Shown: positions 6,627 to 60,007, numbered from the stretch's first letter. The stretch: 64,000 bases of DNA from an uncultured delta proteobacterium (GCA_963727445.1 CAVSGI010000020.1:736001-800000); one strand, 5' to 3'. Numbers and translations: made by a program. The notes: a model not told the origin generated them from the letters alone.

Positions 6627-7327
6627 TCTCGGGATCCCTCTTCGTCGGGGGTGTTCGAGAAGGAGAAGGGGTAGCGGACGTGTACCATGCCTCCGCCTTC
6701 GGGTGCAGGGAGCTCGAGGGTGTAGAGGGTCTCGGACACGCACTCGTCGAGGATGTCGTGACGCAACGTGCTGTCGTCGTCGATCGCCGTGCGCTCCACC
6801 GCGCCGCCCGCGTCGGGTTCACCCTCGATGTCGAACTCCACGACCAGCCGCCCCTCGAGGCTCTGGTCGTCCTGGAGCGCGAGCTCGTAGCACTCGGCGA
6901 TCAGTGGCGATACGGCCCGCACGGCGTCGCGGATGTACTGCGGATCGAGGGAGCCCCGCGGGACCTCTTCGCCGTTGACCGCCGAGCCGCCGGTCTCCAC
7001 CGGGCTCCGCTGGCCTTCGGCGAGCTCGCGCGCCTCTTCCGCTTCCCGACGCTCGCGCGCGCGCTGGATGCGGCGCCGCAGCTCCTCGGCGAGGGCGCGG
7101 ACCTCGGGGTCGTTGGCGTGCACGCGCGGATCGACCGTCTCCTCGGCGTCGGGCTCGGCATCGGTCGCGCCCGCGTCGGGCCCGGACCCACTCACCGTCT
7201 CGGCTCCGTTTCCGGCGCCGCCGGCCGCCTGCGACGGCGATGACCCGTCCGAAGCCGCCATCCAAATCGCGATCGCGAGGACGCAGAGGACCCCCACTCC
7301 GATCCCCAGCCATGGTCCGCGTCGCAT
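6623..7327 (-). CDS. Membrane-anchored AgmX/PglI C-terminal (TonB-C-like) domain protein
   Basis: N-terminal TM helix; GSLDPQYIRDAV..IAECYE..GRLVVEFDI..CV..VRYPFSF. Confidence 0.75.
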   Translation of the reverse strand: MRRGPWLGIGVGVLCVLAIAIWMAASDGSSPSQAAGGAGNGAETVSGSGPDAGATDAEPDAEETVDPRVHANDPEVRALAEELRRRIQRARERREAEEARELAEGQRSPVETGGSAVNGEEVPRGSLDPQYIRDAVRAVSPLIAECYELALQDDQSLEGRLVVEFDIEGEPDAGGAVERTAIDDDSTLRHDILDECVSETLYTLELPAPEGGGMVHVRYPFSFSNTPDEEGSRE

Positions 7328-7411
7328 CCGCGCATGCTCCCCGAAGCTTCGCGGGTGGGCAACCTCGGGCTCGGGGGTGACGACGCTCGGAGGCCGGGCT
7401 ATAGGGGCGTC

Positions 7412-8302
<891 letters not shown>

Positions 8303-9233: not shown

Positions 9234-10813
9234 TCAGACACACTCACCGACCATGGTCGAGCTGGCCCCGACGCAGGTCTCCCCGCTCCGGCAGTCGGCG
9301 GTCGTGAGGCAGCCCGGGAAGCACACCGTAGAGCCGCCGGTGCCGATCCCCGCCGTGCTGGGATCCCAACATCCGTCGCCCGAGAGGCACTGGCTCGCGT
9401 CGGTGCAGGTCTTGACGCAGAAGGTGGTGTCCGCGCCCGTCACCGAGGCGCAGAGCGCACCGGTACCGCAGACGTCGGACGGAATCCCCGGCGCACCGCA
9501 GTCGAAGAGGGTGCAGTGGTTGCCGCTCCCGAAATCGCGACACTGCCCGGCGCCGTAGGGCGAGTAGCAGGTGCTCTCGTCGGTGCAGGAGGCGCCGATG
9601 TTCGGAGTGCGGACGGCGTTGTAGTTGCCGGGAATGCACCCGCCGTTGGTGGTTCCCGCGCTGCCGACCCCATCCCAGAAGCAGGTGTAGCCGCTGCGGC
9701 ACCCGAGCGCGCCCGAGAAGCGGCTCGTGCTCACGTTCCGGCCGACCTCACAGGGCGCCACGCACAGAGCGATCCCGAGGCCCCGGCTCTGGCACACGCC
9801 GGAGCCCGCGCAGGTCACCCCGGGGACGTCGCAGCCGAAGCGTGTGCAGTAGCCTCCCGGCCAGCCGCCGGCCGAGCCGAGATCCTGGATGCAGTCGCCG
9901 TTTCGCTCGCACTCGAAATCGTTGTCGCAGGTGTCGCCAGCCTCGGCGCCGCTGGTGCCGTTGTGCTCACACCGCGCGGTGACGGCGTTGCAGCGGGCGC
10001 TGGTGCTGGCGTCGTAGACGAGGCGGTCGCCACTTGGATTGCTCATCGCGTCATAAGGGTCGATGTACCCGTTGCCGTTCGTGTCGTCGCGGATGACGCG
10101 GCACTCGGTGTCGCTCATGCATCCGGGGACGCATCCCTGAGTGGTGAGCCCGCACTCGTAGTCGGCCCGGCAGGGGTTGGTGGTGAGTGACGGGGTGCAG
10201 CTCCGCGCACACAACCCCACGGTGACGCCACGGGTGTCGGTTCCAGCGTCGAGGCAGACCGCGCAGGCCAGGCCGCCGCAGGACATCTCGTCGTTGGGGT
10301 CGCAGCCGCCCATGTCGACCGCGGCTGCGTTGCTGCAATAGCCGTCGACCCAGCTGGTCGTGGGCACGCTCGTGCCGCCCCCCGGAAGTCCGGTGATCGG
10401 GTCGTCGCTGCCGCCGAGGCTGCCGGAGAATTCGTCGATGCAAAGCGGGCTGCTGAGGCAACCGCGGGTGGGGTCACAGGGCTGGCCGACGTCGCAGCCC
10501 GGCGGGAGGGTGGTGTCGGGGCGGGAGGAATCCGGAATGGACGAATCGGGCACGCTCGAATCGGGCACGCTCGAATCGGGCACGCGCGAATCGGGCACGC
10601 GCGAGTCGGGCACGCTGCTGTCGGGCACGCGCGAGTCGGGCACGCGCAGTCGGGCACGCCGCTGTCCGGCGGCGACGTGTCGCCCATGGAGCCGTCGATG
10701 GGCAGGCTGGTGTCCGCGCCCGAGTCCGCGACGGTGCGACGTCGCGACTCGCCACAGCCGACGACGGAAATTGAGACCACCACGGCGGTGGCGGAAAAGA
10801 TCATCCAGCGCAC
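9234..10813 (-). CDS. Cys-rich secreted lipoprotein with PDS(S/R)V linker repeats (apparent frameshift near 10645)
   Basis: Signal peptide ..SISVVGC in ORF 10115-10843 continues into Cys-rich ORF 9234-10643 (WPGGYC, DTNGNG). Confidence 0.7.
10543..10668 (-). repeat. 15-bp tandem repeat encoding a PDS(S/R)V linker
   Basis: About 8 GAATCGGGCACGC(T/G)C-like units on the + strand. Confidence 0.85.
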
Positions 10814-10906
10814 GTCCCCCTCCTGTGCCTGGAGTGTTAGCACATCGGGCGCATCTGTCCCGGGGCGGCTCGGTAGCAGTGGAGCGACCGGACTGACAGC
10901 GTTTGG

Positions 10907-11695
10907 TCAGAGAGCGGCGCAGCTATCGGGCGCGGCCTCGAGCGGCGCCAGAGTGAAGCCGTTGTCGGCCTCCGAGACCTCGGTGTCGCTGTTCTGGCTC
11001 GCCGCGACGCGCGACCGAACGTCCACGAAGGGGATGTCGTCGCCGTAGACCTCCACGTCGATCGACAGCTCGGCGTCGCCGTGGATCACGCCGCTGTCGG
11101 GGTCGACGCTACCGGAGAGCCAGAGCCGGGCACGCGCCCCGAGATAGACCTCCCAACCGTCGAGGTCGATGGTCACGCCCACCTCTCCGTCGTCGTCGTC
11201 GTCGATCACGCGCGGGTCGTCTCCTTCGGTGGGGAGCGCGTCGAGCAGGGGATCGTCGAGGGCGACTCCGAGCTCGAGGGCGCCGGTCTCGGTGGAGACG
11301 AGAAGGCGTCCTTCGTCGTCGCGGCTCAGGATCGCAGCGAGGATCACCGGCGGCCGCGCACGCACCGTCTCGTCCGACACCTCGGGCACGTGCCCGTCGG
11401 CCTCGGGCAGCTCGACGTGGCATGGCCTCACGGACAAGGAGGTCCCTGCCTCGCCGATCGTCGGAACGAGGTAGCCGTCGATGCGGCTGTCGTAGGTCGT
11501 GGTCTCGCCCGCCGGGTCCCGCGTGACGACGTGAGAGGACAGGGTCAGCGCGTAGGCAGGAGCGAGAGCGGCGCTTTCGGGCGCGGGACCTTCGTCGGCC
11601 TTGCCGCCCGAACCATCGCTGGACGCGAGGGGCCCCTCCATCGCGCATCCGGCGAGGGCGATCAGAAGGACGCACAGCGTTCGAAGGCGGGGCAC
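10907..11695 (-). CDS. Hypothetical lipoprotein
   Basis: LCVLLIALAGC lipobox, GGKADE linker, DDDDDGEVG acidic (possibly Ca-binding) motif. Confidence 0.7.
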   Translation of the reverse strand: MPRLRTLCVLLIALAGCAMEGPLASSDGSGGKADEGPAPESAALAPAYALTLSSHVVTRDPAGETTTYDSRIDGYLVPTIGEAGTSLSVRPCHVELPEADGHVPEVSDETVRARPPVILAAILSRDDEGRLLVSTETGALELGVALDDPLLDALPTEGDDPRVIDDDDDGEVGVTIDLDGWEVYLGARARLWLSGSVDPDSGVIHGDAELSIDVEVYGDDIPFVDVRSRVAASQNSDTEVSEADNGFTLAPLEAAPDSCAAL

Positions 11696-11893
11696 GTCCC
11701 CGAACGGTGCACTCCACGTGCCACGAGAGAAGACGCGGGATCGGCTAGCGATCGGGCCCCCCGACCCCGCTTTTGGAAGCTCGACTAGCCACTTTGGTGG
11801 CACCGATAGACCCCTGTTTGCAGGAGAAACGACCGATCGGGGCGCTGGCACGGAGCGCTGCTCTACGCACTGTCGGATTCAGGGAGAACGATC

Positions 11894-13523
11894 ATGAAGC
11901 GTTTCACCAAGCTCACCTCCATGCTGGCCCTCGCGGGCCTCTTCGGCTGTGCGAACAACGTCGCCGGGCCGGGCAGCGAGCCCGATTTGACCAAGGCCGA
12001 TCCGCTCAAGGCCGACTCGAGCGCCGAGGCGCTCTTCCTCGACTTCACTTTCAGCGGCGAGCTGGTCACCGACAGCCACTACAACCCGAGCGGGCAGGTG
12101 GAGGACCAGCTCCTCTACACCATCGGGCAGCTCAACGGAGAGAACTCCGTGTCGCGCCTCGACAGCGTGACCCTCTCGAACGTCGAGACCTCGCAGACCG
12201 AAGACGGCCGCACGCGCATCACCTACGACGCGCGCATTCCAGTGGCCTGGGGTCATCGCGACAACATCCCCACGTCCTACGACTTCAAGCTTCCCGTCGA
12301 CATGAGCGCGCAGAGCGCCTTCATGGACAAGTACCTGCACACCTGCACCGAGCCCGGCGCGCACGACGTCTCCGCTGGCATCTACTGGTACTACTACCGC
12401 CCGAACCACTACAGCTGCAGCCTCGACCAGACGGATGTCATGACCGTCACCGCCGACGTGGGCCCGAGCCCCATCCAGACGACCGGGAAGTTCCCCGAGT
12501 ACGACAAGGTCTGGGAGGACAACGCCCTCGAGGTGGTCGCGGTCTTCGGCAAGTACGAGGACGGAGCCACGAGCAGCTCCGACGCCGGCATCAGCGGCTA
12601 CAACACCTTCCTTCGCGGAGATCGCCAGCCAGCTCTCGGCGTACGAGGTCACCACCATCCCGGAGACGGTCCCGAGCAATCCAGGAGTGGACGTCCCCGA
12701 GGTCACCTTCGAGGCGACGCTTCCCGACGGCCGGTACATCAGGGTCTTCGCGATGCTCATCGACAGTGTCCGCAGCGCGGGCCAGGACTTCAACGAGCGC
12801 TACGCGCAGCTCACCCCCACCGCGGATCTCATCGCCTACAACGGCCACTCGGGCCTCGGCGCCAACATCCGCGCGCTCGCCAGCAAGGGTGACTGGGCCA
12901 CCGGGCAGTACGCCGTCGTCTTCATGAACGGCTGCGACACCTACGCCTACGTGGACGACGCGCTGTGGACCGCGCACGCGCAGATCAACCCCGACGACGA
13001 TGTCGGCACCAAGTACCTCGACATCGTGATGAACGCGATGCCCAGCTTCTTCAGCAACATGCCCTACGCGACCCTCGCGCTGGTCAAGGGACTGACGGAC
13101 ATCGACAGCCCGCGCACCTACGAGCAGATCTTCGCGGACATCTCCTCGAGCCAGGTGGTCCTCGTCTCGGGCGAGCAGGACAACACCTTCGTGCCTGGTG
13201 GCGGCGGCGGTGGCGAGGATCCGCCCCCCGCTGGCTGGGAAGGCATGAACGAGGGCGGCCCCGTCGCGCGCAACGAAGAGCAGCGCTTCGAGACGCCGGT
13301 TCTGCCGGCGGGCAACTATCGCTTCGAGATGACGGGCAGCGGCGACGCGGACCTCTACGTTCGCATCGGCAACGACCCGACCGTCTCGGAATACGATTGC
13401 CGCCCCTACAAGTCCTCCGCCAACGAGACCTGCGACGTGGAGCTTCCGGCGAACGCCGCCATCCACGTGATGGTCCGGGGCTACACGGACGCGGAGTACC
13501 AACTCAGCGGCTCATCTCTTTGA
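11894..13523 (+). CDS. Lipoprotein with C-terminal PPC domain (apparent frameshift near 12615)
   Basis: GGGAG RBS, LAGLFGC lipobox; second frame has YNGHSGLG..FMNGCDTYAY and the PPC motif MTGSGDADLYVRIG..YDCRPY..NETC. Confidence 0.75.
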
Positions 13524-27751: not shown

Positions 27752-27847
27752 GGGAGCAGAACCCGACTGGGGGCCCCATGATTCCGCTGCGCGGACGAGC
27801 GAGGCACGTTGCCGGATCGCGGTCGGCTATATAGAGTCGCCGGCCCG

Positions 27848-28261
27848 ATGGCATTTTCGAGCGACATCCGAGTTCGATTCGGGGACGAGGACCATGCGGG
27901 GATCGTCTACTACCCCCGCTTCTTCGACTTCTTCCACCAGGCCTTCGAGGACTTCTTCGCGGACAACGGTGTCCCCTACAAGGAGGTCCTCGACGTCGAC
28001 AACTGCGGCTGGCCGTCGGTGCATGCGGAGGCGGACTTCGTCAGCCCGGCGCGCTTCGGAGACACGCTCACCGTCGAGGTCGAGGTCACCCGCATCGGGG
28101 ACAAGTCGGCCACCTTCGCCTTTCGAGGCGTGAACCGCGCCCAGGACCGGCTGGTGCTGAAGGGCTCGGTGACCTGCGTCTGCATCCGCATGGACACCTT
28201 CGAATCGCAGCCCATCCCGGACAAGTATCGGGCCATGTTCGAAAAGCACCTGGCGGGCTGA
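27848..28261 (+). CDS. Acyl-CoA thioesterase (4HBT/YbgC hotdog)
   Basis: VRFGDEDHAGIVYYPRFFDF, ADFVSPARFGD. Confidence 0.88.
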   Translation: MAFSSDIRVRFGDEDHAGIVYYPRFFDFFHQAFEDFFADNGVPYKEVLDVDNCGWPSVHAEADFVSPARFGDTLTVEVEVTRIGDKSATFAFRGVNRAQDRLVLKGSVTCVCIRMDTFESQPIPDKYRAMFEKHLAG

Positions 28262-28330: not shown

Positions 28331-30142
28331 ATGAAGGCCCTGATCAAGGTCGGCTACGGCTGCAACGACCACTGCTCGTTCTGCCACACGTTGGACGTCC
28401 GGCACGTCGACGGCGAGGCGCGCGAGATCCACGAAAAGATCGAGCGGGCCAAGACGCTCGGACACTCGATGGTGGTGCTCTCCGGCGGCGAGCCCACGAT
28501 CCGCCCCGAGCTGCTCGCTTGGGCTGATCACGTCGTGCGCCTCGACATGGACTTCGGCCTGGTCACCAACGGCCGGATGCTGAGTTACGGCGAGCTCACC
28601 GAGAAGCTCCTCGCGCGGCGGCTGAAGTACGTCTATCTCTCGCTCCACGGCGGGACGGCGAAGATCCACGACCTGATGGTGCGCTCCGAGGCCTTCGACG
28701 AGACCTATGGGGCGCTCGATAACCTCTCGGGACGCGGGCTCGACCTCACCGTCAACTGCGTCATCACCAAGCACAACGTCGACCACCTGAAGGGTGTGGT
28801 CGATGCCGTGCTGAAGTATCCGGACCTCGGGCTGAACTTCTCGATGGTGGAACCGAAGGGCGGCGGCGACGCGCTCTTCGAGCATCTGATGCCGCGGATC
28901 TCCTACGTCGCCGACAAGGTCCGCGAGGCGATCCGTTACGGCGACGCCGAGGTCGCGTCGCGAGGCGCCGTGGGGCCGCGCTTCAGCCACGGCGCGATCC
29001 CACTGTGCCTGATGCCCGGCGACGAGCGTCGGTACAGCGATCTGAAGAGCCACCGCTTCGCCGCCATGACCGAGATCGGAGAGCCCGATTTCTATCCGGT
29101 GGACGATCTCAACAAGGTGCAGCCGCGCGACAAGTGTCGCGGATGCTCGCTCAGTGGCGCATGTCCCGGTCTCTACAAGGGGTACGTCGAGGTTTTCGGA
29201 GACGACGAGGTGAAGCCGGTCTTCGACCGCCCGCGGAGCAACTCCTTCAACTACGTCTTCGAGGCGCGCGTCGCGCCCCGTCCCGATGGTGCATGCCCGC
29301 TCTACGCCGATGGAATCACTCCGTGGGATCGCGGCCGCCACCTCTTCGTCGAGCACGCGGGTCGCATCGGGCGCTACGTCGCACGCACGCGCGACTTCTC
29401 CGACGTCGAGATCGCCGAGCTCAAACACGACCTCGGGCAGATCTACGCCGATGTCTCGCGCAAGCCCGCGCCGGACGATTTCGCCAAGGACCTGGTGCAG
29501 CTCGAGCGGAGCGAACGCTGTGACGGATGCGAGCTGCGAGAGCGCTGCACCGGGATGTTCACGCCGCGCATGGAGGACGTCTTCACCCGCGACGATGCGC
29601 GCGTGCGCGCTCTGATCGGGACGCTCGAGGGGACTGTGCTGGACGTGGGATGCGGGGAGGGGCCGTACGAGGACGTGCTCGAACCGCGCGCCCGCTCGGG
29701 CGCCATCGAGTACGTGGGCCTCGAGCCGGACGCGGGGCGCGTGACCGCGCTCAGGGCGCGGAGGCCCTGGGCGACCATCGAGGAGGGGCGCGCCGAGGAC
29801 CTGAACGGGAGCCACGAGGCTCGCTTCCTGCACGTGCTCGTGCTCCGGAGCTGGAACCACCTCGAAGATCCCGAGCGCGCCCTCGATCGCATCGCCGCGA
29901 GCCTCGCGCCTGGAGGCACGCTCACCGTGGTCGACAACGTCGCCTTCGGCCTCGCCCGCTCAGCCGAAAAGACGCGCCGCGCCGAGTCCTCGCGCGCAGG
30001 CTTCGAGCACTACCGCAACGACGACGCCAGCGATGCGCACCGCCGCATCGCCGCGCGAGGCTTCACGCTCATCGAGCGCCACGACGTCGCCCCCGGCACC
30101 AGCAACCAGTGGCTCCTTCGCTACGCCAAGGGGACGGTCTAA
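28331..30142 (+). CDS. HxsC-type radical SAM enzyme fused to a C-terminal class I methyltransferase
   Basis: CNDHCSFC, SGGEPTIR, IPLC, CRGCSLSGACPG, second CDGCELRERC, then VLDVGCGEG and LAPGG. Confidence 0.85.
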   Translation: MKALIKVGYGCNDHCSFCHTLDVRHVDGEAREIHEKIERAKTLGHSMVVLSGGEPTIRPELLAWADHVVRLDMDFGLVTNGRMLSYGELTEKLLARRLKYVYLSLHGGTAKIHDLMVRSEAFDETYGALDNLSGRGLDLTVNCVITKHNVDHLKGVVDAVLKYPDLGLNFSMVEPKGGGDALFEHLMPRISYVADKVREAIRYGDAEVASRGAVGPRFSHGAIPLCLMPGDERRYSDLKSHRFAAMTEIGEPDFYPVDDLNKVQPRDKCRGCSLSGACPGLYKGYVEVFGDDEVKPVFDRPRSNSFNYVFEARVAPRPDGACPLYADGITPWDRGRHLFVEHAGRIGRYVARTRDFSDVEIAELKHDLGQIYADVSRKPAPDDFAKDLVQLERSERCDGCELRERCTGMFTPRMEDVFTRDDARVRALIGTLEGTVLDVGCGEGPYEDVLEPRARSGAIEYVGLEPDAGRVTALRARRPWATIEEGRAEDLNGSHEARFLHVLVLRSWNHLEDPERALDRIAASLAPGGTLTVVDNVAFGLARSAEKTRRAESSRAGFEHYRNDDASDAHRRIAARGFTLIERHDVAPGTSNQWLLRYAKGTV

Positions 30143-30520
30143 ACTTTTCAACTTTCCGTGAGCGGGCCGTTCGACCGCTACGGCAAGGGGACGGTCTAGA
30201 CTTTTCAACTTTCTGTGAGCGGGCGGTTCGACCGCTACGGCAAGGGGACGGTCTAGACTTTTCAACTTTCTGTGAGCGGGCGGTTCGACCGCTACGGCAA
30301 GGGGACCGGCAAGGGGACGGTCTAGACTTTTCAACTTTCTGTGAGCGGGCGGTTCGAGGCGAGAAAGTTGAAAAGTGTAGACCGTCCCCGTCAGAGGCGC
30401 CGTCCCCGTCAGAGGCGCCGTCAGAGGCGGGAAAGTTGAAAAGTGTAGACCGTCCCGTCCCCGTCAGAGGCGCCGTCAGAGGCGGGAAAGTTGAAAAGTG
30501 TAGACCGTCCCCGTCAGAGG
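30127..30520. repeat. REP-like array: four direct and three inverted copies of a 27-bp core
   Basis: GGGGACGGTCTA(A/G)ACTTTTCAACTTTC at 30130, 30187, 30244, 30313 (57-bp period for the first three); inverted GAAAGTTGAAAAGTGTAGACCGTCCC(C) at 30363, 30431, 30486. Confidence 0.9.
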
Positions 30521-30969
30521 CCGACCTTCATGCCGGCGGCGTCGAGCTGCTTGCGGACGCGGGTGGCCTGGGCGGCGTCCGAGATGGCGACGGCCGAGAA
30601 GGCGGTCGCCATCACGGCGGCCGGGACGCTGGCGAGGCCGAGGAGGCTGAAGATGCCGTGGGCCACGGCGTAGAGCTGCCAACCGGCCGCGCAGAAGAAG
30701 GCCAGGCCGGCGATCACGGTGCCGCCCACCGCGGCCCAGGTCCGTGCGCGGTAGGTCATCAGCGCGAGGATCAGGAGCGCGGCGGCGAAGTTCAGATGCA
30801 CGATGGGGACGAGCTCGAGAAGCTCCCGGGTGAAGCGGGTGGTGAAGAGTTGGATGGAAGTGAAGGCCAGGAGCGCGCTGGTGACGCCGAGCAGCGCCGC
30901 CGCCACCTTCACCTTCCAGGTCCCCGCCGCCTTCGAGACGTCGATCTGGTCGAACGCTTCCACCACCAC
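30514..30969 (-). CDS. Small multi-pass membrane protein, divergent from the Hxs precursors
   Basis: About four hydrophobic helices; GTG start uncertain (30963-30969). Confidence 0.7.
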   Translation of the reverse strand: MVVEAFDQIDVSKAAGTWKVKVAAALLGVTSALLAFTSIQLFTTRFTRELLELVPIVHLNFAAALLILALMTYRARTWAAVGGTVIAGLAFFCAAGWQLYAVAHGIFSLLGLASVPAAVMATAFSAVAISDAAQATRVRKQLDAAGMKVGL

Positions 30970-31043
30970 CCGCCGGATAGCATGGGGTGGGCTCCGGTGC
31001 CTGTCGGCGTGACACCTCCGGCGAGCGGAGATACTCTTCGTTC

Positions 31044-31355
31044 GTGGCCGACGGGGACAAAGGCGACGAGCTTCCCTCCTTCCGCGCCGAGGCCGGGGAT
31101 CGGCTGGTGGGCGAGCAGAAGCAGATCTCCGATCGGGCACGGGAGAACGCGGACAAGAACGTCGGCGGCTCGCCGCCCTCGGATCTGGTGCAGCGGGGTG
31201 GCCAGCACTGCTCCCATGCCTCCCATGGGTCGCATGGCTCCCACGGGTCGCACGGCTCCCACGGGTCGCACGGCTCCCACGGGTCGCACGGCTCCCATGG
31301 CTCCCACGGGTCGCACGGCTCCCATGGGTCCCACGGCTCCCACGGGTCCTGGTAG
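31044..31355 (+). CDS. hxsA: His-Xaa-Ser repeat precursor peptide 1: leader + HCS-HAS-(HGS)14-W
   Basis: GTG start after GGAG; 16 HxS triplets at 31206-31349; leader homologous to precursor 2. Confidence 0.88.
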   Translation: MADGDKGDELPSFRAEAGDRLVGEQKQISDRARENADKNVGGSPPSDLVQRGGQHCSHASHGSHGSHGSHGSHGSHGSHGSHGSHGSHGSHGSHGSHGSHGSW

Positions 31356-31421
31356 CTATCGGCCCACCGCCCCCCCACCCCTCCGTGACAGCCCTCACGA
31401 GCCGGGTTAGACTACCGTCTC

Positions 31422-31715
31422 ATGGCCGACGATGAGAGCAGCCAGGACGAGGGCGCAGAGGAAGAGGTCCCTTCCTTCAAGGCCGAGGCCGCGGATCGGT
31501 TGGTGGCGGAGCAGAAGGACATCTCCGAGCGAGCGCTCGAAAACGCCGATGATGGCGGCTTCGCAGGCGATGGTGGCCAGCGTGGAGCGCAGCACTGCTC
31601 CCATGGGTCCCACGGCTCGCACGGGTCTCACGGCTCGCATGGATCCCACGGCTCGCACGGGTCTCACGGCTCGCACGGGTCCCACGGCTCGCACGGGTCC
31701 CACGGCTCCTGGTAG
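31422..31715 (+). CDS. hxsA: His-Xaa-Ser repeat precursor peptide 2: leader + HCS-(HGS)12-W
   Basis: 13 HxS triplets at 31593-31709; leader PSFKAEAADRLVAEQKDISERALENAD..QRGAQ. Confidence 0.9.
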   Translation: MADDESSQDEGAEEEVPSFKAEAADRLVAEQKDISERALENADDGGFAGDGGQRGAQHCSHGSHGSHGSHGSHGSHGSHGSHGSHGSHGSHGSHGSW

Positions 31716-31770
31716 CGTGCCCGCTTGGTCGGGTAGGCTCAGGCCCCACCCGCTACCCCCTCGGTGAACC

Positions 31771-32241
31771 TTGAAGCTTCCCGGAATTCCCGAAGAGCTC
31801 GCCGGCGCGGACCTCGAGCAAGGCTCCGTGCACGTCGTCGTCGATGACACGGTCTATCCCCTCGAAGCGATCTACGGCGCGAGCTTCGTCTTCATCGACC
31901 GCGCTTACGTCTTCGTCGATCGGCCGACCGCAGGCAAGTATCGCATCGTCCTCACGCCGAAGAAGGGCGGGGTCGACGAGGAAGGCATGAAGGCGCTCGT
32001 GGGCGAGCTCTCCAACGAGCTCCTCTCGAACGCGTTCCGCCATCAGATCACCAAGGAGAACCGCGCCACCATCGAAGCGGTGACCATGCAGGCGATCGCG
32101 GGCGCGATGGGGCCGCCGAGCCTCGACGAGCTCGAGGACTTCGACTTCTCCGAGGAGCCCTTCGACGACCCGCTGGGCATCGCCCAGAGCTGGGAGGAGA
32201 AGTACCAGAAGAAGGGAAAGAAGGAGTCGGAGGAGCAGTGA
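31771..32241 (+). CDS. hxsD: His-Xaa-Ser system protein HxsD
   Basis: VDDTVYPLEAIYGASFVFIDRAYV..GELSNELLSNAFR (HxsD-like); acidic tail DDPLGIAQSWEEKY; lies between the precursors and hxsB. Confidence 0.8.
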   Translation: MKLPGIPEELAGADLEQGSVHVVVDDTVYPLEAIYGASFVFIDRAYVFVDRPTAGKYRIVLTPKKGGVDEEGMKALVGELSNELLSNAFRHQITKENRATIEAVTMQAIAGAMGPPSLDELEDFDFSEEPFDDPLGIAQSWEEKYQKKGKKESEEQ

Positions 32242-32459
32242 CCGAGCTGCGCTTCGACAAGGGCATCTACGTCGGCGAGGCGGTGGACGAGGCGGTGAAG
32301 CGCTTCGGCGGCTTCGCGGATTTCGAGCTCTCCGAAAACGACGAAGCGTGGGTGGTGAAAGTGACCGCCAAAAAGCCAGCGCTGCAGAAACGGATCGTCG
32401 GCGAGCTCCAGAACTTCGCCCTCGGTCTCACCATCAAGAATCCGAATCGGGGCGTTTGA
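32238..32459 (+). CDS. Short HxsD-like protein
   Basis: FDKGIY..AVDEAV..IVGELQNFAL parallels the HxsD pattern; GTGA and TGATG overlaps with both neighbours. Confidence 0.7.
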   Translation: MTELRFDKGIYVGEAVDEAVKRFGGFADFELSENDEAWVVKVTAKKPALQKRIVGELQNFALGLTIKNPNRGV

Positions 32460-33952
32460 TGATCCTGACGCGAATCGGCAAGACCGACGCGAGCCATCCT
32501 GCGCTCTTCCGCGTTCGTGAAGTCGGCGGCAAAGCGTTGATCACGAATCAGGAAGGACGCTGGCTGCTGCTCACCGAGGAGGAGCTCGGGCTCTTCGCTC
32601 GCGGTGAAGCGAAGGAGGGCACGGAGCTCCACGAGCGCCTGAAGTCCCACAACTTCCTGCGCGACCATTACGACGTGCTCGCCGCCGCGGAGATGCTCCG
32701 CCAGCGAAAAGGTTTCATTCACTACGGGCCGAACCTCCACGTCTTCGTGATCACCCTCCGCTGCAACGAGACCTGCGTCTACTGCCACGCCTCGCGCGCC
32801 AACATGGACGCGGTGCACACCGACATGAGCCCGGAGATCATCGAGAAGTCTGTGGATCTCGTGCTGAAGAGCACCAACCCCTACGTCACCATCGAGTTCC
32901 AGGGCGGCGAGCCGCTGGTGAACTGGGAGGGCATCAAGCACACCATCGAGTATGCCCTCGAGAGGAACCGCTCGGTCGGCAAGAACCTCGAGTTCACCAT
33001 GGTCTCGAACCTCGCGCTGATGACCGACGAGATCATGGACTACCTCCTCGAGCACAAGGTCCAGATCTGCACCAGCATCGACGGGCCGGCGCACGTGCAC
33101 GACAAACAGCGCAAGCTCCCCGGGATGAGCTCGCACGACCGCGCGGTGCACTGGCTACGACGGATCAACGCGCGCTACGAGGAGATGGGCCTCGACTCGA
33201 CCCTCTATCACGTCGAGGCGCTGCTCACGACGACGCGCGCCGCGCTGCCGCTTCACCAAGAGGTGGTCGACACCTACGTCGGCCTCGGGGTGAAGTCGCT
33301 GTTCCTGCGCCCGCTCGATCCCTTCGGCTTCGCGGAGAAGACCGCGGACAAGATCGAGTATCCGCGCGAGGAGTACATGGCGTTCTATCGGAACGCCCTC
33401 GACTACATGATCGAGCTCAACAAGAAGGGCACGCAGATCCTCGAGCGCTACGCGGCGATCTTCCTGACGAAGATCCTCCGCGGCGAGGATCCGAACTTCC
33501 TCGACATCCGCTGGCCGGGCGGCGGCGGTATCGGCCAGGTCGCCTATAGCTACGACGGGAAGATCTTCGCCTCGGACGAAGGCCGCATGCTCCACGAGAT
33601 GGGCGACGACACCTTCGAGATCGGCCACGTCGACACCAGCACCTACCGCGAGCTCATGGGTCATCCCACCGTCCGCGCCCTCGCCCTCGCCTCGAACCTC
33701 GAGCAGAACCCGGACTGCGTGAGCTGCACCTACCTGCCGTACTGCGGCGTGCCGCCCGTCCACAGCCACAAGACCCAGGGGACGATCTTCGGCCGCATGC
33801 GCGAGTCGACCCTGTGCTACGTCCACAAGCACATCCAGGACTACCTCTTCGAGAAGATCGCCGAGGGCAACCCCGAGACGCTCGAGATCTTCGAGCGGTG
33901 GACGACGAATCGCCTCCGCGACCACTTCCTGCACGCGGCCGGCGGGGTCTGA
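32459..33952 (+). CDS. hxsB: His-Xaa-Ser system radical SAM maturase HxsB
   Basis: LHVFVITLRCNETCVYCHASR, IEFQGGEP, ICTSIDGP, YSYDGKIFASDEGRML, CVSCTYLPYCG..QG..FGR..STLC; adjacent to the HxS precursors. Confidence 0.9.
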   Translation: MILTRIGKTDASHPALFRVREVGGKALITNQEGRWLLLTEEELGLFARGEAKEGTELHERLKSHNFLRDHYDVLAAAEMLRQRKGFIHYGPNLHVFVITLRCNETCVYCHASRANMDAVHTDMSPEIIEKSVDLVLKSTNPYVTIEFQGGEPLVNWEGIKHTIEYALERNRSVGKNLEFTMVSNLALMTDEIMDYLLEHKVQICTSIDGPAHVHDKQRKLPGMSSHDRAVHWLRRINARYEEMGLDSTLYHVEALLTTTRAALPLHQEVVDTYVGLGVKSLFLRPLDPFGFAEKTADKIEYPREEYMAFYRNALDYMIELNKKGTQILERYAAIFLTKILRGEDPNFLDIRWPGGGGIGQVAYSYDGKIFASDEGRMLHEMGDDTFEIGHVDTSTYRELMGHPTVRALALASNLEQNPDCVSCTYLPYCGVPPVHSHKTQGTIFGRMRESTLCYVHKHIQDYLFEKIAEGNPETLEIFERWTTNRLRDHFLHAAGGV

Positions 33953-37000: not shown

Positions 37001-37973
37001 GGCACAACTCTGAACACGCCGGGCCAGATCGTAGCGTTCGGATCAGCGGCCGGCGAGCTCTTCCGGGTGCGTGCCGACGGCGCGGAGCTCCCCTTCTCGT
37101 CCGCGTTTGGTAGCACGCTCTTGGTGGACGGGGCGGTCATGCTTGCCGGAGCTCCGGATAGCTCCAAGACCGGTTCCGTCTTCGTGCTGGACAGCACCCA
37201 GGGGTTCTTCGTCGATCAGATTCTTCCATTCACGAACGGGAGCCAGGCCTTCGGCGCGTCGGTCGCCGGCTCGTTCGGAGGCCGACTCTTCGTCGGCGCG
37301 CCCTCGGCATCGAACGAGGCCGGCGCGGTGTACGTATTTTCCGGCGGGGCGCTGGAGTCGAATTGTCCCTGGACCCTTCGAAGGCGCTCGCCTCGGATCG
37401 TCCGCGATAGTGCCGTTCGCCACCGAGTTCCCATACGACCTTCAGGGCCACAGAGAGGCGTTCGTTGCGGGGGCCCCTTACGCCCGTCAGGGCACGGGCA
37501 TGGTGGTGGTCGGCGGAATCGAGGGCTCGATCCTCCTCACCCTAACAGGCAGCGAAAGGGGCGAAGGTTTTGGCGCCTCCTTGAGCGGCTGGTTCGACCT
37601 CACGGGGGATGGGCGATCTGAGCTCTTGATCGGCGCACCGAACCACGGCGGCGGTCGCGGCACGGTCTATCGTTTGTCCGCGAGCTTCGACCTGACGACC
37701 TCGGGTGCGCTCGGCAACATCGGCGATCGGCTCGGGCTTTCGGTTCAGGGATGGCCGGCCAATGATGGTGCCATCTTTCGGATCGGAGTCGCGGGCATCG
37801 ACTATCCAGGGGCCGAGCTTCCTGGTGGCTGGGTGTCACTCACCCCTGCGTCGATATCACCGCGGAGTGCGACCGGCCGCGACATTGCGGAGATCTTGGC
37901 CCGTCAGCGTGAGCTCTTGGGTCGGCCGGCGCTGGGTCGCGCGCCACCACTTACGTCGAGAGCGCGACGATGA
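34054..37973 (+). CDS. Large Cys-rich surface lipoprotein with thrombospondin type-3-like Ca-binding repeats and C-terminal FG-GAP repeats (out of frame at the GTCT tract and near 37350)
   Basis: DADHDGHGDICDNC, DENLDGVGDACD, DLDGDGAGEVLLG, VGAP, DLTGDGRSELLIGAP; ATG at 34054 after GGGGGG. Confidence 0.7.
34065..34088 (+). repeat. (GTCT)6 simple sequence repeat in the signal-peptide coding region
   Basis: Read directly, starting 11 nt after the first base of the ATG at 34054. Confidence 0.9.
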
Positions 37974-43356: not shown

Positions 43357-45046
43357 ATGGTTGACCGCGTGAGCGGCCTCGACCCCTATGCAGCCGTCGT
43401 CGGACGCCCCCTCGGGGGCGGGCGATACCTCGTGGGGGAGCGCATGGACGAAGGCGGCATGGGTGCCGTCTTCCGCGCGACGGACAACGAACAGGGTGAC
43501 GTCGTCGCCATCAAGGTCCTCCATCCGGATCTCGCCAAGGAGACCCGCCACGTCGCCCGCTTCTACCGCGAGGCCGAAACGGCGATGGCCCTGAGCCACC
43601 CGCACATCGTGGAGACGCGCACGGTGGGCGGCCCCGACGACGACCTCTGCTGGTTCGCGATGGAGCTGCTCGAGGGCAAGAGCCTCCATCAGATGCAGGG
43701 GGAGGGGCGGATGACCTTTCCGCCAGCGGAGGTGGTCCGCATCGGCCGGCAGATCCTCAGCGCCCTCGAAGCCACACACTCGGTTGGCGTTCTCCATCGC
43801 GATCTCAAGCCGGGCAACGTGATGCTCGTGGAAAAAGCCCGAGGGCTCGGTGGCGAAGCTCGTCGATTTCGGCATCGCGGTGCTCACCTCCTCCGAGACC
43901 TACACGCGCCTCACCGCCACCGGCATGGTCCTCGGGACGCCGGCCTACATGCCGCCGGAGCAGGTCTGCGGCGACGACCTCGACGCGCGCTCGGACGTCT
44001 ACTCGCTGGCCGCCACGCTCCACACAATCCTCGTCGGCGAGCCACCCTACGGCCGGGGCACCTGGGGCGAGATCCTGCCCAGGATCCTGACCGGCAGCCG
44101 GACGCGCCTCGAGACCCGCGGGTTGGACCGCCCTCTGGCGAGCGTGATCGAGCAGGGCCTGGCCGTCGATCGCGAGGCGCGGTGGGGGAGCGCGCGCGAG
44201 ATGGAGCTCGCGCTCTCGGCCCTCGACGTCGCCGGCCAGCGCACGGTCCTCGAGTGGCAACCGCCTCCGCAGATCTCGGCGCTTCACCTCGGCCCCTTCG
44301 ACAACACCGGCCCCGGTTTCGCGAAGACCCTCGAATCGCAGCGCCCAGGGCCCTTTCCCTCGACGCGTGAGCAGCCTTCATCGAATCCTCCACCCCCCGC
44401 GGCGCCGCGCGCCGAGCCGTCACATCTCGCGGGTCCCGACCCGGTGATCGACGCGGTGCCGGAAGCGGAGCTTCGCGTGCCGATGCGGGGAGGCCTCTGG
44501 CCCCTCTTCGCGCTGGGCGCGGTGGGGAGCCTGCTGGCGGCCGGCCTCGTGTTCTGGGTGCTGACCGACGTCGAGGGGACGCAGGCGGAGGCGCCGGCGA
44601 CGCCGGCGGACGTTGCGGCGCCCGCGGAGGAGACACCGGCCACCGAAGCGCGTGACGAGGTCGCGTCCGGAGGGGGCGACATTCCGGAGGGCGTCGAGGC
44701 GCCGGCGGAGGTCGCGTCCGAAGAGGAGACGCTCCCGGCCGAGGAAGAGGTGCGCGCTCGTTCTCTGTCGGCTCGGCGCACGACGAGCTCGCGCCGCGCC
44801 GGCACCGAGGGGGTGGCCACAGCCGAGACTACCTTGGACGACGACGAAGAATGGAAAGCGGAAGAGGAGGGTGCGACGCCGATGGCTTCCACCGGCCCCA
44901 CCTCGCCACCCGCGGAGACCGAGACGAATCGGCGTCCCGCGATCATGGTCAACGTGGTCGGCAGCGGCGGCTCCTCGGTCACCGCGGTGGCGCCCGGCAC
45001 CGATCCCTCCCTCGTGCCGATGGTCACTTACCGTACACACCGCTGA
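43357..45046 (+). CDS. Ser/Thr protein kinase with TM helix (apparent frameshift near 43840)
   Basis: EGGMGAV, VAIK, HRDLKPGN | KLVDFG, GTPAYMPPEQ, SDVYSL. Confidence 0.88.
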
Positions 45047-50426: not shown

Positions 50427-51464
50427 GTGCAGGAACCGCAGGTCGAGGAGCGCATCGCCGAAAAGAAGGAGCGCGTGCACGTGCTCACCGGCGCGGTCTG
50501 CAACAACAACTGCGTCTTCTGCATGGAGGAGGACCGCGAGGCCCGCTACGAGGTCAACTCGCAGACGACCGATGAGGTCGTGCGCTTCATCCTCGAGGAG
50601 AACCGGGGCTGCGAGGAGATCTGCTTCACTTCGGGTGAGCCCACCTTGAACAAGCGTCTCCCCCTCTGGGTGAATTGGGCCAAGGAGGCCGGCGTCCCAC
50701 GGATCAGCGTGATGACCAACGGCCGCAGCCTCGGCTACGAGCGCTACGCGCGGATGCTGGTCAAGGCGGGGATGAACCGCTTCTACGTGTCGATTCACGG
50801 GCACGAAAAGCGCCTTCACGAGGGTCTCACCCGGACGCCCGACAGCTTCGAGCAGACCGTCGCGGGTCTGGATCAGATCACCAAGCTCAAGCGCTTCGGT
50901 GTCGAGCTGCACACCTCGACGGTGGTCACCAAGCGAAACCTGCCCCACCTCTCGGACATCTACCGCTTCCTGCGAAGCCACGGCGTCGACCAGGTCGTCT
51001 TCAACGTCATGCAGGCCAACGGCCGCGCCAACACCCACTTCGAGAAGATCTTCCCGCGCTACACCGACATCGCAGCCGAGGCGGCGCGTTTCCTCGCCGA
51101 AGCCGGCAAGCACGAGGATCAGGTGATGGCTTTCCTGGTGGACATCCCGCTGTGCACCACCGAAGCGCTTCCGGATTTCAACCGGGGCTTCGTCGAGGCG
51201 TACAAGCACTACGAGCCTCCAGGCGGCGCCGGCCACGACACCGTCCTATCCGCCACCTTCGACGCATCCAATCAGGTGCAGGGCCCGGAGGGAGAGCTGG
51301 TGCAGATCCGCCGCGCCGACCTGGACGAAGACGTCCGCTCCAAACGCGCCGAGTGCAGAAGCTGCCGCTACGACGCAGTCTGTGAGGGCGTCTGGGCGAA
51401 CTACTCGAGGCGCTTCGGCTGGGACGAGATGCAGCCGGTCCGTGCTAGCCTCCCCTCCGAGTGA
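50427..51464 (+). CDS. hxsC: HxsC-type radical SAM enzyme
   Basis: CNNNCVFC, TSGEPTL, MTNGR, IPLC, CRSCRYDAVCEGVW..Y..FGWDEMQPV. Confidence 0.75.
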   Translation: MQEPQVEERIAEKKERVHVLTGAVCNNNCVFCMEEDREARYEVNSQTTDEVVRFILEENRGCEEICFTSGEPTLNKRLPLWVNWAKEAGVPRISVMTNGRSLGYERYARMLVKAGMNRFYVSIHGHEKRLHEGLTRTPDSFEQTVAGLDQITKLKRFGVELHTSTVVTKRNLPHLSDIYRFLRSHGVDQVVFNVMQANGRANTHFEKIFPRYTDIAAEAARFLAEAGKHEDQVMAFLVDIPLCTTEALPDFNRGFVEAYKHYEPPGGAGHDTVLSATFDASNQVQGPEGELVQIRRADLDEDVRSKRAECRSCRYDAVCEGVWANYSRRFGWDEMQPVRASLPSE

Positions 51465-58083: not shown

Positions 58084-59022
58084 TCAGGGCACGACGGGCA
58101 GGGCCCTCTCGCTCCGCGACCGACGACCTCGAGGTGCGTGCGCCCCTTCGCCGACGAAAAGCGATGCGATCGCGGGGAGCGTTCCGGATGGGGCGTTGGT
58201 GGAACGGAGCTCGCGTCCGCCCAGGCGTTCGACGTAGAGCGCGTCCACACCGGGGCAGCGCGCGCGTGACGGGCACGCGTCGCACACGGCCACGTACGCG
58301 CGGGGATGCGCCGGCAGCGCGTGTTCGGCGAAGGGGCCGAGCAGACAGAGCGGTGCGCCGGAGAGGAAGCTCGGGAGCGCCGCGCGGCGGGCGCGCGCGA
58401 GCGCGTGGAGCGCGTAGGGGAGCGCGACCGAGAGGCGGGGCAGGATGCGAGGCGCGGCGTCTTCGGCGCGACCGGCGGCGACAGGCAGCGAGATGCACCA
58501 GGCCTTCACCCCGGCCGCCGAGAGCAGGGTCGGCAACTCCGAGAGGACGGCCTGGTTCGAGCGGGTGAGCACCGTCGTACAGACGACGTCGAGGCCCGCC
58601 TGTCGCGCGGTCTCGAGGGCGCGTCCGATGCGGGCGAAGCTCCCGGGGTGGCCCGTGTGATAGTCGTGCACCTCGGGCCGCGCGCCGTGAAGCGACAAGT
58701 GCACGTCGGTGAGCCCCGCGTCGCGCAGCCGCGCTGCGGCGGTTGGATCGTCGCCGAGGAGCGCACCGTTGCTCTGAACGCCGACGCGAGAGAAGCCGCT
58801 TTTTTTGAGGCGCCCGAGGATCGCTTCGATGTCGCTCACCCCCAGCGGCTCGCCCCCGGTCAACGTGACCGCGTCCTGCTCCGATGCGGCGAGGGCTTCG
58901 ATGCGCTCGTCGAGTGACGGGCCCTCGTCTTCGAGCCCGTCCTGGCAGCAGAAGACGCACGCATTGTCGCATTCGAGCGTCAAACGGAGCGTCGGGCGGG
59001 TCGGGGTCGCGCGGGCCAACAC
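58084..59022 (-). CDS. HxsC-type radical SAM enzyme
   Basis: CDNACVFC, TGGEP, QSNG, APLCLLGP, CDACPSRARCPGV..Y..LGGREL; start GTG 59022 or TTG 59019. Confidence 0.8.
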   Translation of the reverse strand: MLARATPTRPTLRLTLECDNACVFCCQDGLEDEGPSLDERIEALAASEQDAVTLTGGEPLGVSDIEAILGRLKKSGFSRVGVQSNGALLGDDPTAAARLRDAGLTDVHLSLHGARPEVHDYHTGHPGSFARIGRALETARQAGLDVVCTTVLTRSNQAVLSELPTLLSAAGVKAWCISLPVAAGRAEDAAPRILPRLSVALPYALHALARARRAALPSFLSGAPLCLLGPFAEHALPAHPRAYVAVCDACPSRARCPGVDALYVERLGGRELRSTNAPSGTLPAIASLFVGEGAHAPRGRRSRSERALPVVP

Positions 59023-59080
59023 GCTGAGGGTAGAGAGCCCCGGGTGGCGGTCAAGCCGAGGCCCCGTAACATACGAGGGC

Positions 59081-60007
59081 TTGCCCCTCCTCGACGTCAT
59101 CCTGGGTTACGACTGCAACCTCGCATGTGACTACTGCACCATCTCGCCGGAGATGCGCGCGCGCGCCATCGATACGCGCGCGGTGGCCTCCGAGCTCCGG
59201 CGCGGGCAGGCGGACGGATACGACCGGGTCTCCTTCACCGGGGGCGAGCCGACCATCCGCGCCGATCTGCTCCCGCTGATCCGCGAGGCGCATCGCCTCG
59301 GCTACGGTGACATCAAGGTTCAGTCCAACGCGCTCCTCTTCACGCCTTCGAACGTCGCCCGGCTCGCCGACGCCGGCGCGAACCGCTTTCACGTATCCAT
59401 CCACACCCACCGGGCGGATCGGTACGACGCCCTGGTTCGCCGTGAGGGCGCGTATCCCGCGATGGTCGCGGGGCTCGACGCGGTGATCGCCGCTGGCCAT
59501 CGTCTCACCGTCGATCTCATCATCAAGTCGGACACCCTGGCGGACCTGCCGGACGCGGCGCGCTGGCTCCACGCGCGCGGCGTGCGGAGCATTCACCTCT
59601 GGTTCGTCTCCCTGACCGACGAAAACCGCGACAACCTGGCGTCGCTCCCCAAGATGAGCGCGGCCATACCCCAGGTGAGCGAGGTGCTTCGGCTGGCCGA
59701 GGCCGAGAGCTTCGAGGTGCTCTCGCTCCACATCCCGCGCTGTCTGTTGGGTCCCGAGAACGTCGCCCACGCCTGGGACCCCGGCAGAGACGACGTGCGC
59801 GTCGTGACGCCCGACGCGACCTTCCAGCTCGAGCGGTCGAAGATCACCGGGCAGCGTCACGTGCCCGCCTGCGACGGGTGCGAGTACCGGGAGATCTGCC
59901 CGGGCTTGCGCGACGACTACCTCGAGGTGTACGGCGACATCGAGGTCGCCGCGGTTCGAGGCGTGGCCTCCTCGGTGCCGCCCACGCGCGCTCTGCCGGT
60001 CCTCTGA
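59081..60007 (+). CDS. HxsC-type radical SAM enzyme
   Basis: GAGG then TTG start; CNLACDYC, FTGGEPTIR, IPRCLLGP, CDGCEYREICPGL..Y..YGDIEV. Confidence 0.82.
   Translation: MPLLDVILGYDCNLACDYCTISPEMRARAIDTRAVASELRRGQADGYDRVSFTGGEPTIRADLLPLIREAHRLGYGDIKVQSNALLFTPSNVARLADAGANRFHVSIHTHRADRYDALVRREGAYPAMVAGLDAVIAAGHRLTVDLIIKSDTLADLPDAARWLHARGVRSIHLWFVSLTDENRDNLASLPKMSAAIPQVSEVLRLAEAESFEVLSLHIPRCLLGPENVAHAWDPGRDDVRVVTPDATFQLERSKITGQRHVPACDGCEYREICPGLRDDYLEVYGDIEVAAVRGVASSVPPTRALPVL

Follow-up and report, generated by a model that had tools for sequence, protein, structure and literature searches.

Twin HGS-repeat precursors in a probable HxsA4-type His-Xaa-Ser radical-SAM system of a Polyangia myxobacterium

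Relation to described His-Xaa-Ser systems

The canonical His-Xaa-Ser (HXS) system of Escherichia coli is described as an anti-phage system in which an HxS repeat (SHRSS) of the substrate HxsA carries a +8 Da modification of unexplained structure (Li et al., Nat Commun 2026, PMC13128918; this and all later statements on E. coli HXS are limited to the available part of that article). HxsB, HxsC and HxsD were all required for HxsA maturation in E. coli, the +8 Da change was not reconstituted in vitro, and the effector was modelled with a signal peptide, a peptidoglycan anchor and DNA-binding basic repeats (PMC13128918). The accompanying census placed 99.7% of HXS systems in Pseudomonadota (PMC13128918). 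The present analysis concerned a locus at positions 28,331 to 33,952 of a 64,000-nucleotide stretch from an uncultured delta proteobacterium (GCA_963727445.1 CAVSGI010000020.1:736001-800000; the whole stretch is hereafter the window). The locus was very probably a genuine HxsA4-type (type-4) His-Xaa-Ser system of a Polyangia myxobacterium for the maturation of peptides by radical S-adenosylmethionine (radical-SAM) enzymes, with a proposed leader clamp and a proposed unit-by-unit modification of the core. Its gene content, family membership, co-occurrence in other genomes and selection on each repeat unit were read from the sequence.

The window shared with canonical HXS (E. coli/Klebsiella, HxsD-HxsB-HxsC-HxsA) an HxsB-type SPASM enzyme, an HxsC-type enzyme, an HxsD-type protein and a His-Xaa-Ser substrate. 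It differed in the substrate, a leader-core peptide of 97-103 aa with 13-16 near-identical HGS units and a Trp end, and in having two HxsD-type proteins, a radical-SAM/methyltransferase fusion and several HxsC-like paralogues. The canonical gene order is D-B-C-A with hxsB and hxsC adjacent (PMC13128918), whereas the usual myxobacterial order was fusion-D-Dlike-B-A-C and that of the window, departing from D-B-C-A, was fusion-A-A-D-Dlike-B with hxsC4 16.5 kb away. The myxobacterial type was chromosomal and widespread in Myxococcota. Neither the signal peptide nor the peptidoglycan-binding domain of the canonical effector was found in the HxsA4 precursors by Pfam scan and translation.

A preliminary description of the window had read twin short genes with a shared leader and HGS-repeat cores, overlapping hxsD, hxsD-like and HxsB-type genes downstream of them, and a radical-SAM/methyltransferase fusion just upstream; open reading frame (ORF) calls, translation, coordinates, overlaps and family scores bore out each of these readings (Table 1). 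NCBIfam scores supported its assignment to the His-Xaa-Ser system with the two small genes as repeat-peptide substrates: with the Hxs hidden Markov models, HxsA4, HxsD_rel, HxsB and HxsC4 passed, while HxsD fell just under its cut-off. The co-occurrence and synteny of precursor and enzymes that it looked for in other genomes were found (61 genomes; 80 loci). Its placing of an HxsC in the system stood in part, since the upstream fusion was not an HxsC (96.8 bits against 500) but a passing HxsC4 lay outside the locus as first delimited. Its word 'uncharacterised' needs a qualification. The subtype is already named in NCBIfam, in the annotation-only families HxsA4 (NF038313), HxsC4 (NF038332) and HxsD_rel (NF038315), whose three cut-offs the window proteins passed; the NCBI Prokaryotic Genome Annotation Pipeline (PGAP) uses HxsA4, and one public Omnitrophota protein is named by NCBI 'His-Xaa-Ser repeat protein HxsA4'. 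Canonical Hxs has its anti-phage assignment (PMC13128918). In the open literature, subscription journals lying outside the search, no paper naming HxsA4, HxsC4, HxsA2, HxsA3 or HGSHGSHGS was found, and experimental work on HxsB was found only in the E. coli study. Against the NCBIfam HxsA4-type norm, the window precursor was duplicated and upstream of hxsD and hxsC4 was displaced by 16.5 kb; twin precursors, A4-first order and dispersed enzymes are the peculiarities of the locus.

Precursors, partner genes and their distribution

The two precursors were 103 aa (hxsA4-1, from GTG 31044) and 97 aa (hxsA4-2) long, carried 16 and 13 HxS triplets, and were both capped by a C-terminal Trp. The hxsA4-1 ORF spans 30987-31355 and a start at 30987 is also possible; GTG 31044 is the likely start because M-ADGDKGDELPSF matches the MAD/MAE N-termini of homologues. 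The two proteins were 77% identical, and the leader DNA of the two copies has diverged, so the duplication is not recent. Copy 1 covered positions 1-93 and copy 2 positions 2-93 of the 93-position NF038313 profile. The 16 and 13 repeat units were built from 8 and 7 distinct synonymous 9-mers, and the HGS units of both arrays had zero amino-acid substitutions; this purely synonymous variation argues for selection on every repeat unit rather than fresh slippage.

The HxsA4 N-termini were acidic (MADDESSQDEGAEEE...), and the Pfam scan found no domain besides a collagen-periodicity match (PF01391 Collagen; 28.9 bits for copy 1 and 23.3 bits for copy 2, gathering score 27.2). That match, together with a long ORF antisense across the copy-1 array (30514-31398), would suit, instead of a precursor, either a Gly-X-Y repeat of collagen-like or low-complexity kind or an artefact of the opposite strand. 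GC content at third codon positions (GC3) was 0.86 in hxsA4-1 and 0.81 in hxsA4-2 in the sense frame, against 0.46-0.70 antisense across the precursor gene; the leader was conserved, and in 56 of 80 loci the gene stood at a constant place beside the other Hxs genes. The HxsA4 peptides should probably not be filed as collagen because relatives from other phyla have a non-Gly X, and the PF01391 match would reflect Gly at each third residue. The conservation data effectively refute the non-precursor explanation.

Across 57 cores out of 56 loci, a terminal Trp stood straight after the last triplet in all 57, and 789 of 790 internal triplets were HGS. The first triplet was HCS in 43 cores, HGS in 9, HAS in 4 and HWS in 1, and repeat number ranged from 5 to 59. 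AQ or GQ preceded the core in 35 of 57, and PG, PT, AG or SG in the others; the GGQ/GAQ that had been proposed as the leader/core junction is a junction for this clade only. The alignment showed a conserved leader motif of (D/E)-L-P-x-F, about 7 residues, L, then Q-R-x-I-S-x-R-A ... A-D. Omnitrophota relatives had an N-terminal hydrophobic segment and mixed triplets of the form H(G/S/A/N)S, and closed with GQW or GSW. Because of these features, the terminal Trp and the LP...F-type motif appear to extend past Myxococcota, and pure HGS and the acidic leader appear to be traits of the myxobacterial form. A word-index protein search with the precursor gave 44 matches, its reach limited by low complexity.

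Precursors of Plesiocystis, Enhygromyxa and Nannocystaceae (L070, L076, L083, L091, L097, L101, L103, L104) were without cysteine and began the core as PGDPG|HGS, so the family can do without the Cys of HCS. A precursor with 37 triplets was found at 9741-10247 of L039. L060 (a Myxococcales metagenome-assembled genome (MAG), 6709-8040) held neighbouring precursors of 35 and 59 triplets without hxsB within 10 kb, and was the only locus among the 80 besides the window with two precursors. A divergent subtype in L032 and L047 (G035 contig 54, G046) had another leader, a core starting HCS-HSS or HCS-HAS and ending HGQW, an HxsB 44-46% identical and different accompanying radical-SAM genes; G035 held both subtypes.

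The constancy of the terminal Trp, which ended all 57 cores, both window copies and the distant Omnitrophota forms, could mean that Trp is the real substrate, as a scaffold or cofactor precursor, with the HGS array as spacer or handle. A small helper with a SPASM radical-SAM enzyme also recalls PqqD/PqqE, and the likeness extends to PqqA/PqqD/PqqE and mycofactocin MftA/MftB/MftC as sets of a small peptide, a peptide-binding helper and a SPASM radical-SAM enzyme. These systems differ from the window in that HxsD had no match to a PqqD-type recognition element of ribosomally synthesised and post-translationally modified peptides (RRE), and in that the window core is a long repeat, not a single site. 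Had the array been a spacer, 789 of 790 triplets would not have stayed identical through synonymous drift, and the E. coli modification maps to an HxS repeat (PMC13128918). The Trp-centred cofactor model is weakened by repeat purity and is very improbable.

The hxsD-like start overlapped the hxsD stop by GTGA and the hxsB start overlapped the hxsD-like stop, and the three genes appear to be translationally coupled. HxsB aligned to positions 4-466 of 466 of TIGR03978, with Cys 103/107/110 (CxxxCxxC) and 421/424/430/454 invariant in 68 sequences. Its nearest solved relatives by sequence were 5wgg (E 2e-19) and anaerobic sulfatase-maturating enzyme. It was 37-39% identical to annotated plasmid hxsB genes of other genera, inspected outside Klebsiella; 411 records matched in all, 317 of them from Klebsiella.

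The best non-Hxs matches of HxsB were thioether-forming families (CcpM 104, PapB 100, SCIFF 94 bits). Cys-based thioether formation as the family-wide chemistry was rejected, with HCS as first triplet in only 43 of 57 cores and Cys-free Enhygromyxa/Plesiocystis forms. Weaker matches to the cyclophane synthase families YhhB (61 bits) and XyeB (47.6 bits) bear on a different chemistry, the one suggested in the preliminary description: each H-G-S would be turned into a triceptide-like cyclophane of three residues that joins a His ring carbon to the Ser C-beta and costs 2 Da per triplet (-2 Da). The known enzymes HtkB and HaaB, which are likewise SPASM-type and act on three-residue motifs starting with His, form a His-C2 to C-beta crosslink (PMC11499958, available part). 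The YhhB and XyeB scores were far under their cut-offs of 445 and 450 and below those of the thioether families; triceptide systems are not known to use HxsD or HxsC partners, nor do their cores consist purely of repeats. The only mass shift measured for Hxs is +8 Da instead of -2 Da (PMC13128918), and the presence of at least five extra radical-SAM enzymes implies several reactions; the cyclophane is an unlikely product.

The HxsD of the window was matched in position and synteny by hxsD in 80 of 80 loci, these loci having been picked by HxsD itself. Its C-terminal tail, LDELEDFDFSEEPFEDPLGIAxSWEEKY, was nearly invariant in 79 sequences (DF...DPLGI..SW invariant) and falls outside the 90-position TIGR03976 profile. 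The AlphaFold2 model of HxsD (14 sequences; predicted local distance difference test (pLDDT) 79.8, predicted template-modelling score (pTM) 0.60) had a four-stranded sheet, a short helix, a long helix at 70-112 and a low-confidence tail. HxsD as a PqqD-type RRE was rejected, Foldseek against the PDB giving no match at E at or below 0.001; the best rows were Rpb11-like RNA-polymerase chains, all weak. An HxsD profile search of PDB sequences gave nothing below E 0.38.

The fusion had an HxsC-like N-terminus and two CxxCxxxxxC auxiliary-cluster motifs. Its NCBIfam scores were best for HxsC4 (96.8 bits) and lower for TIGR03977 HxsC (72.8 bits, cut-off 267.9), in both cases over the N-terminal 200 residues only; it appears HxsC-like but not an HxsC, because 96.8 bits is far under the HxsC4 cut-off of 500. 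Fifty orthologues conserved Cys 11/15/18, 226, 269/272/278, 322 and 397/400/406, and retained CxxxCxxC, both CxxCxxxxxC and the methyltransferase GCG motif. PqqE was among the nearest solved relatives of the N-terminus. From its presence in 60 of 80 loci, the fusion appears to be a conserved system member.

HxsC4 conserved Cys 25/29/32 (CxxxCxxC) and 310/313/319 (C-terminal CxxCxxxxxC), and its gene followed a histidine kinase and a sigma-54 response regulator, 16.5 kb downstream of hxsB. Sigma-54 control of the hxs genes through this pair was rejected: a scan for TGGCAC-N5-TTGC gave 37 matches against 46 expected and zero upstream of any hxs gene, and the pair did not adjoin hxsC4 in five other genomes. 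A sigma-70-like site, by consensus match only, lay ahead of hxsA4-2 at 31385-31413. A look through sequencing runs for the locus listed no RNA run and only three DNA runs, with small shares of its sequence words. In the whole genome the HxsC4 model gave 15 matches, seven of them within C20:764-830 kb, the window's neighbourhood. Orthologues of three accessory genes that are recurrent in the Hxs loci of other species, for a double radical-SAM protein, a radical-SAM protein of about 600 aa and a protein of about 200 aa of unknown family, were found at 808982-819143 of contig C20 of this genome (G000), 9-19 kb beyond the window end, those for radical-SAM proteins at 13-19 kb. The Hxs-associated genes of the genome spread across about 55 kb, about 32 kb of that inside the window.

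Table 1. Precursor, maturation and candidate accessory genes in the window, with the number of loci holding a homologue within 10 kb of HxsD
Feature	Position	Strand	Description and family scores	Loci
YbgC/4HBT-type acyl-CoA thioesterase, possible accessory	27809..28261	+	Pfam 4HBT_2 65.4 bits; TIGR00051 54.2 bits (cut-off 68.7)	12/80, next to fusion gene
Radical-SAM/class I SAM methyltransferase fusion	28331..30142	+	Radical_SAM 74.8 bits (residues 6-158); Methyltransf_23 47.8 bits (432-582)	60/80, usually directly upstream
hxsA4-1, precursor	31044..31355	+	54-aa leader + HCS-HAS-(HGS)14-W; NF038313 HxsA4 88.1 bits (cut-off 55)	56/80 (HGS precursor)
hxsA4-2, precursor	31422..31715	+	57-aa leader + HCS-(HGS)12-W; NF038313 HxsA4 92.4 bits (cut-off 55)	56/80 (HGS precursor)
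hxsD, 156 aa	31771..32241	+	HxsD domain + conserved acidic C-terminal tail	
hxsD-like gene, 73 aa	32238..32459	+	NF038315 HxsD_rel 72.2 bits (cut-off 41), positions 1-62 of 62	70/80
hxsB, SPASM-type radical-SAM maturase	32456..33952	+	Start TTG 32456 or ATG 32459; TIGR03978 550 bits (cut-off 370)	72/80
hxsC4, HxsC-type radical-SAM enzyme passing the family cut-off	50427..51464	+	NF038332 624.3 bits (cut-off 500)	44/80, beside hxsA4 in most relatives
rSAM58, HxsC-like radical-SAM paralogue	58084..59100	-	HxsC4 77.7 bits, HxsC 74.7 bits, both under cut-off	36/80 (at least 37% identity)
rSAM59, HxsC-like radical-SAM paralogue	59090..60007	+	HxsC4 77.4 bits, under cut-off	17/80 (at least 50% identity)

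Among 61 genomes of the same order, scored at curated cut-offs, HxsA4 passed in 20, HxsB in 21 and HxsC4 in 16; the 20 HxsA4 genomes had HxsB in 18 cases and HxsC4 in 14. Two of the three HxsB genomes without passing HxsA4 (G010, G055) had a sub-cut-off HxsA4 match beside hxsB, and the same two were the HxsC4 genomes without passing HxsA4. The hxsC4 gene adjoined hxsA4 in 8 of the 14 genomes with both; in the other 6, this one included, the two were on different contigs or at least 15 kb apart. In an even sample of Myxococcota, HxsA4 was above cut-off in 122 of 401 genomes (about 30%).

A scan with the HxsD alignment, one genome per species, gave 149 relatives, of which the best 80 loci were analysed, several of them cut by contig ends. 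These best 80 of 149 were all Myxococcota (Polyangiales, Nannocystaceae, Sandaracinaceae, Kofleriaceae), and the cultured carriers were Plesiocystis pacifica SIR-1, three Enhygromyxa salina strains, Paraliomyxa miuraensis and Nannocystaceae strain ST9. The commonest gene order was fusion-D-Dlike-B-A4-C4 (26 of 80 loci), and shortened versions of it explained most others; the window order fusion-A4-D-Dlike-B was found again only in L049. In L041/L049, the closest syntenic relative, thioesterase-fusion-A4-D-Dlike-B abutted both HxsC-like paralogues, speA, pdxT and pdxS, which are the genes at 58-64 kb in the window, and the rSAM58 homologue directly abutted hxsB. Compared with L041/L049, the window thus carries an insertion of about 24 kb that parts hxsB from the paralogues. 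A same-genus genome had hxsC4 beside the HxsC-like paralogues and speA. Apart from the genes of Table 1, the recurrent families among 874 clustered ORFs of the 80 loci were only extra radical-SAM proteins, one of them double-domain, and unknown-family proteins. In-frame stops in hxsB of L126 (Nannocystaceae MAG, 10734-12200) and in hxsD-like of L101 (Enhygromyxa salina, 10510-10743) may be pseudogenes or assembly errors.

Leader recognition, chemistry and role

A complex of HxsB, HxsD, HxsD-like and, as the scored partner, HxsA4-2 residues 1-72 was predicted with an own alignment for each chain (58-79 rows). The four-chain complex scored 0.89 and the best of 3 controls 0.38. In calibration, 116 of 157 solved complexes attained the score mark, as did 2 of 215 mismatched pairs. 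Runs shared at least 51% of contacts, with partner pLDDT of at least 57. Confident contacts involved leader residues 16-47, which are the conserved motif (V/L-P-S-F ... Q-K/R-x-I-S-E/D-R-A), and residues 30-43 and 87-116 of HxsD, 22-26 and 49-67 of HxsD-like (the ELxNxALG helix), and 386-445 of HxsB, beside the SPASM cysteines. The score fell to 0.00 on replacement of the leader. The model supports predicted binding of the leader by HxsD, HxsD-like and HxsB. No solved Hxs complex surfaced in structure searches with the HxsB and HxsD sequences. In E. coli, mutations of HxsD at LYW and LLNDYxLRE reduced HxsA processing (PMC13128918), an effect that, by analogy, fits substrate handling by HxsD-type proteins without proving it.

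In the proposed mechanism, leader residues 16-47 would be clamped by HxsD, HxsD-like and the SPASM-proximal C-terminal part of HxsB, and the clamp would keep the repeat core close to the enzymes. HxsB and HxsC4 would then work their way along the array, altering the side chain of His, of Ser or of both in every HGS unit, and the fusion enzyme and the HxsC-like paralogues would add further tailoring, possibly one-carbon transfer; both steps are modelled on E. coli HXS, the sole characterised relative. The product may be a heavily modified poly-imidazole peptide, with envelope defence, metal handling or another role as a guess. A bolder version is tentative and doubtful: the product would belong to an undescribed class of ribosomal peptide polymer, in which a relay of at least five radical-SAM enzymes (HxsB, HxsC4, the fusion and HxsC-like paralogues) would give every HGS in arrays of 5-59 units one and the same bridged imidazole structure, with an HxsD/HxsD-like clamp on HxsB instead of an RRE and with the Trp cap required.

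Several points weigh against the HxsA4-type reading and its mechanism. The HxsD match to TIGR03976 (44.7 bits, E 1.3e-11, positions 1-87 of 90) was below the cut-off of 50, and the 16.5 kb between hxsB and hxsC4 held unrelated genes, which leaves co-regulation with the precursors a supposition. For the complex prediction, a four-chain job with own alignments, the calibration counts are only a rough guide; the score was still 0.38 when HxsB was swapped for an unrelated protein, and core residues 58-72 were placed without confidence. Chemistry and role of the HxsA4 type are argued here by analogy with E. coli HXS, and may not transfer because HxsA4 lacks two parts of the E. coli effector, its signal peptide and its peptidoglycan-binding domain. 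No recurrent protease, exporter or defence gene was found within 10 kb among the 874 clustered ORFs of the 80 loci; leader removal and product destination lack an explanation because no protease or exporter was conserved.

The closest functional precedent would make the matured (HGS)n peptide a functional equivalent of E. coli HXS that acts at the envelope and blocks phage DNA entry. HxsB identity to annotated canonical hxsB (37-39%), the HxsD-type and HxsC-type partners, and the need for each HxS repeat for defence in E. coli (PMC13128918) agree with such a role. The acidic HxsA4 N-terminus does not, being without the signal peptide and peptidoglycan-binding domain that are both essential in E. 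coli. PADLOC yielded only generic radical-SAM/viperin-level matches (PADLOC 2023 has no Hxs model) with no defence genes nearby, and a defence-island context was rejected on these matches. The system also occurred in 122 of the 401 Myxococcota genomes sampled and abutted housekeeping speA/pdxST in three related genomes, unlike a mobile defence island, which leaves an anti-phage role rather unlikely.

Histidine makes up one-third of the core over 5-59 repeats, and this composition is enough by itself to make metal binding plausible. A crosslink-stiffened poly-His array could chelate Ni, Zn, Cu or Co as a metallophore or metal chaperone/store, and in two loci a protein with a MopE-type Cu-binding motif lay beside the precursor. 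The 80 loci conserved no transporter, TonB receptor or metal regulator, and chelation alone leaves the strict Gly, Ser and terminal Trp conservation unexplained; as an account of the system, chelation is improbable.

Surroundings of the locus and wider meaning

GC content in the window was 0.62-0.72. A 57-bp tandem repeat at 30119-30306 (3.3 copies, 96% matches) ran from the last codons of the fusion gene onward, and a 55-bp repeat at 30400-30511 (2 copies, 100%) stood before a small membrane gene. The repeat cores GACGGTCTAGACTTTTCAACTTTC (57-bp) and GAAAGTTGAAAAGTGTAGACCGTC (55-bp) were near reverse complements of one another, and the closest syntenic relative had only about 50 bp in place of the 30119-30511 repeats, which may form a small element, mobile or regulatory. 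The gene at 30514-30969 (- strand; 151 aa, uncalled-looking, GC3 0.90-0.98) had long hydrophobic membrane-like stretches and was divergent from hxsA4-1, with 75 bp between the starts. It was rejected as a system member, with no homologue in 100 related Hxs loci searched.

The segment 34000-40000, which belongs to the approximately 24 kb parting hxsB from the paralogues relative to L041/L049, had lower GC (0.63-0.65 against 0.67-0.72 around it). It held an ORF of 1170 aa with a thrombospondin-type-3/MtsC-like segment, and a second ORF (37071-37973), overlapping the first in another frame, carried an FG-GAP repeat; the two are probably a single gene with a frameshift or assembly error. A Ser/Thr protein kinase at 43357-45046 was split across two overlapping frames (N-lobe 43357-44370, C-lobe 43850-45046), by frameshift, pseudogene formation or sequencing error.

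For this type, the curated Hxs gene set is incomplete because the fusion and the HxsC-like paralogues travel with the system. Radical-SAM modification of His-Xaa-Ser repeats had been predicted for more than a decade, and its first functional read-out came in 2026, in E. coli (PMC13128918). The locus suggests a testable mode of leader recognition, the HxsD/HxsD-like/HxsB clamp. It also offers 10-20 identical targets in a small, soluble-looking leader-core peptide, so that any mass change per unit would add up along the array and could readily be localised. If the bolder version of the mechanism is true, this pure-repeat substrate could reveal the unsolved +8 Da chemistry of Hxs systems.

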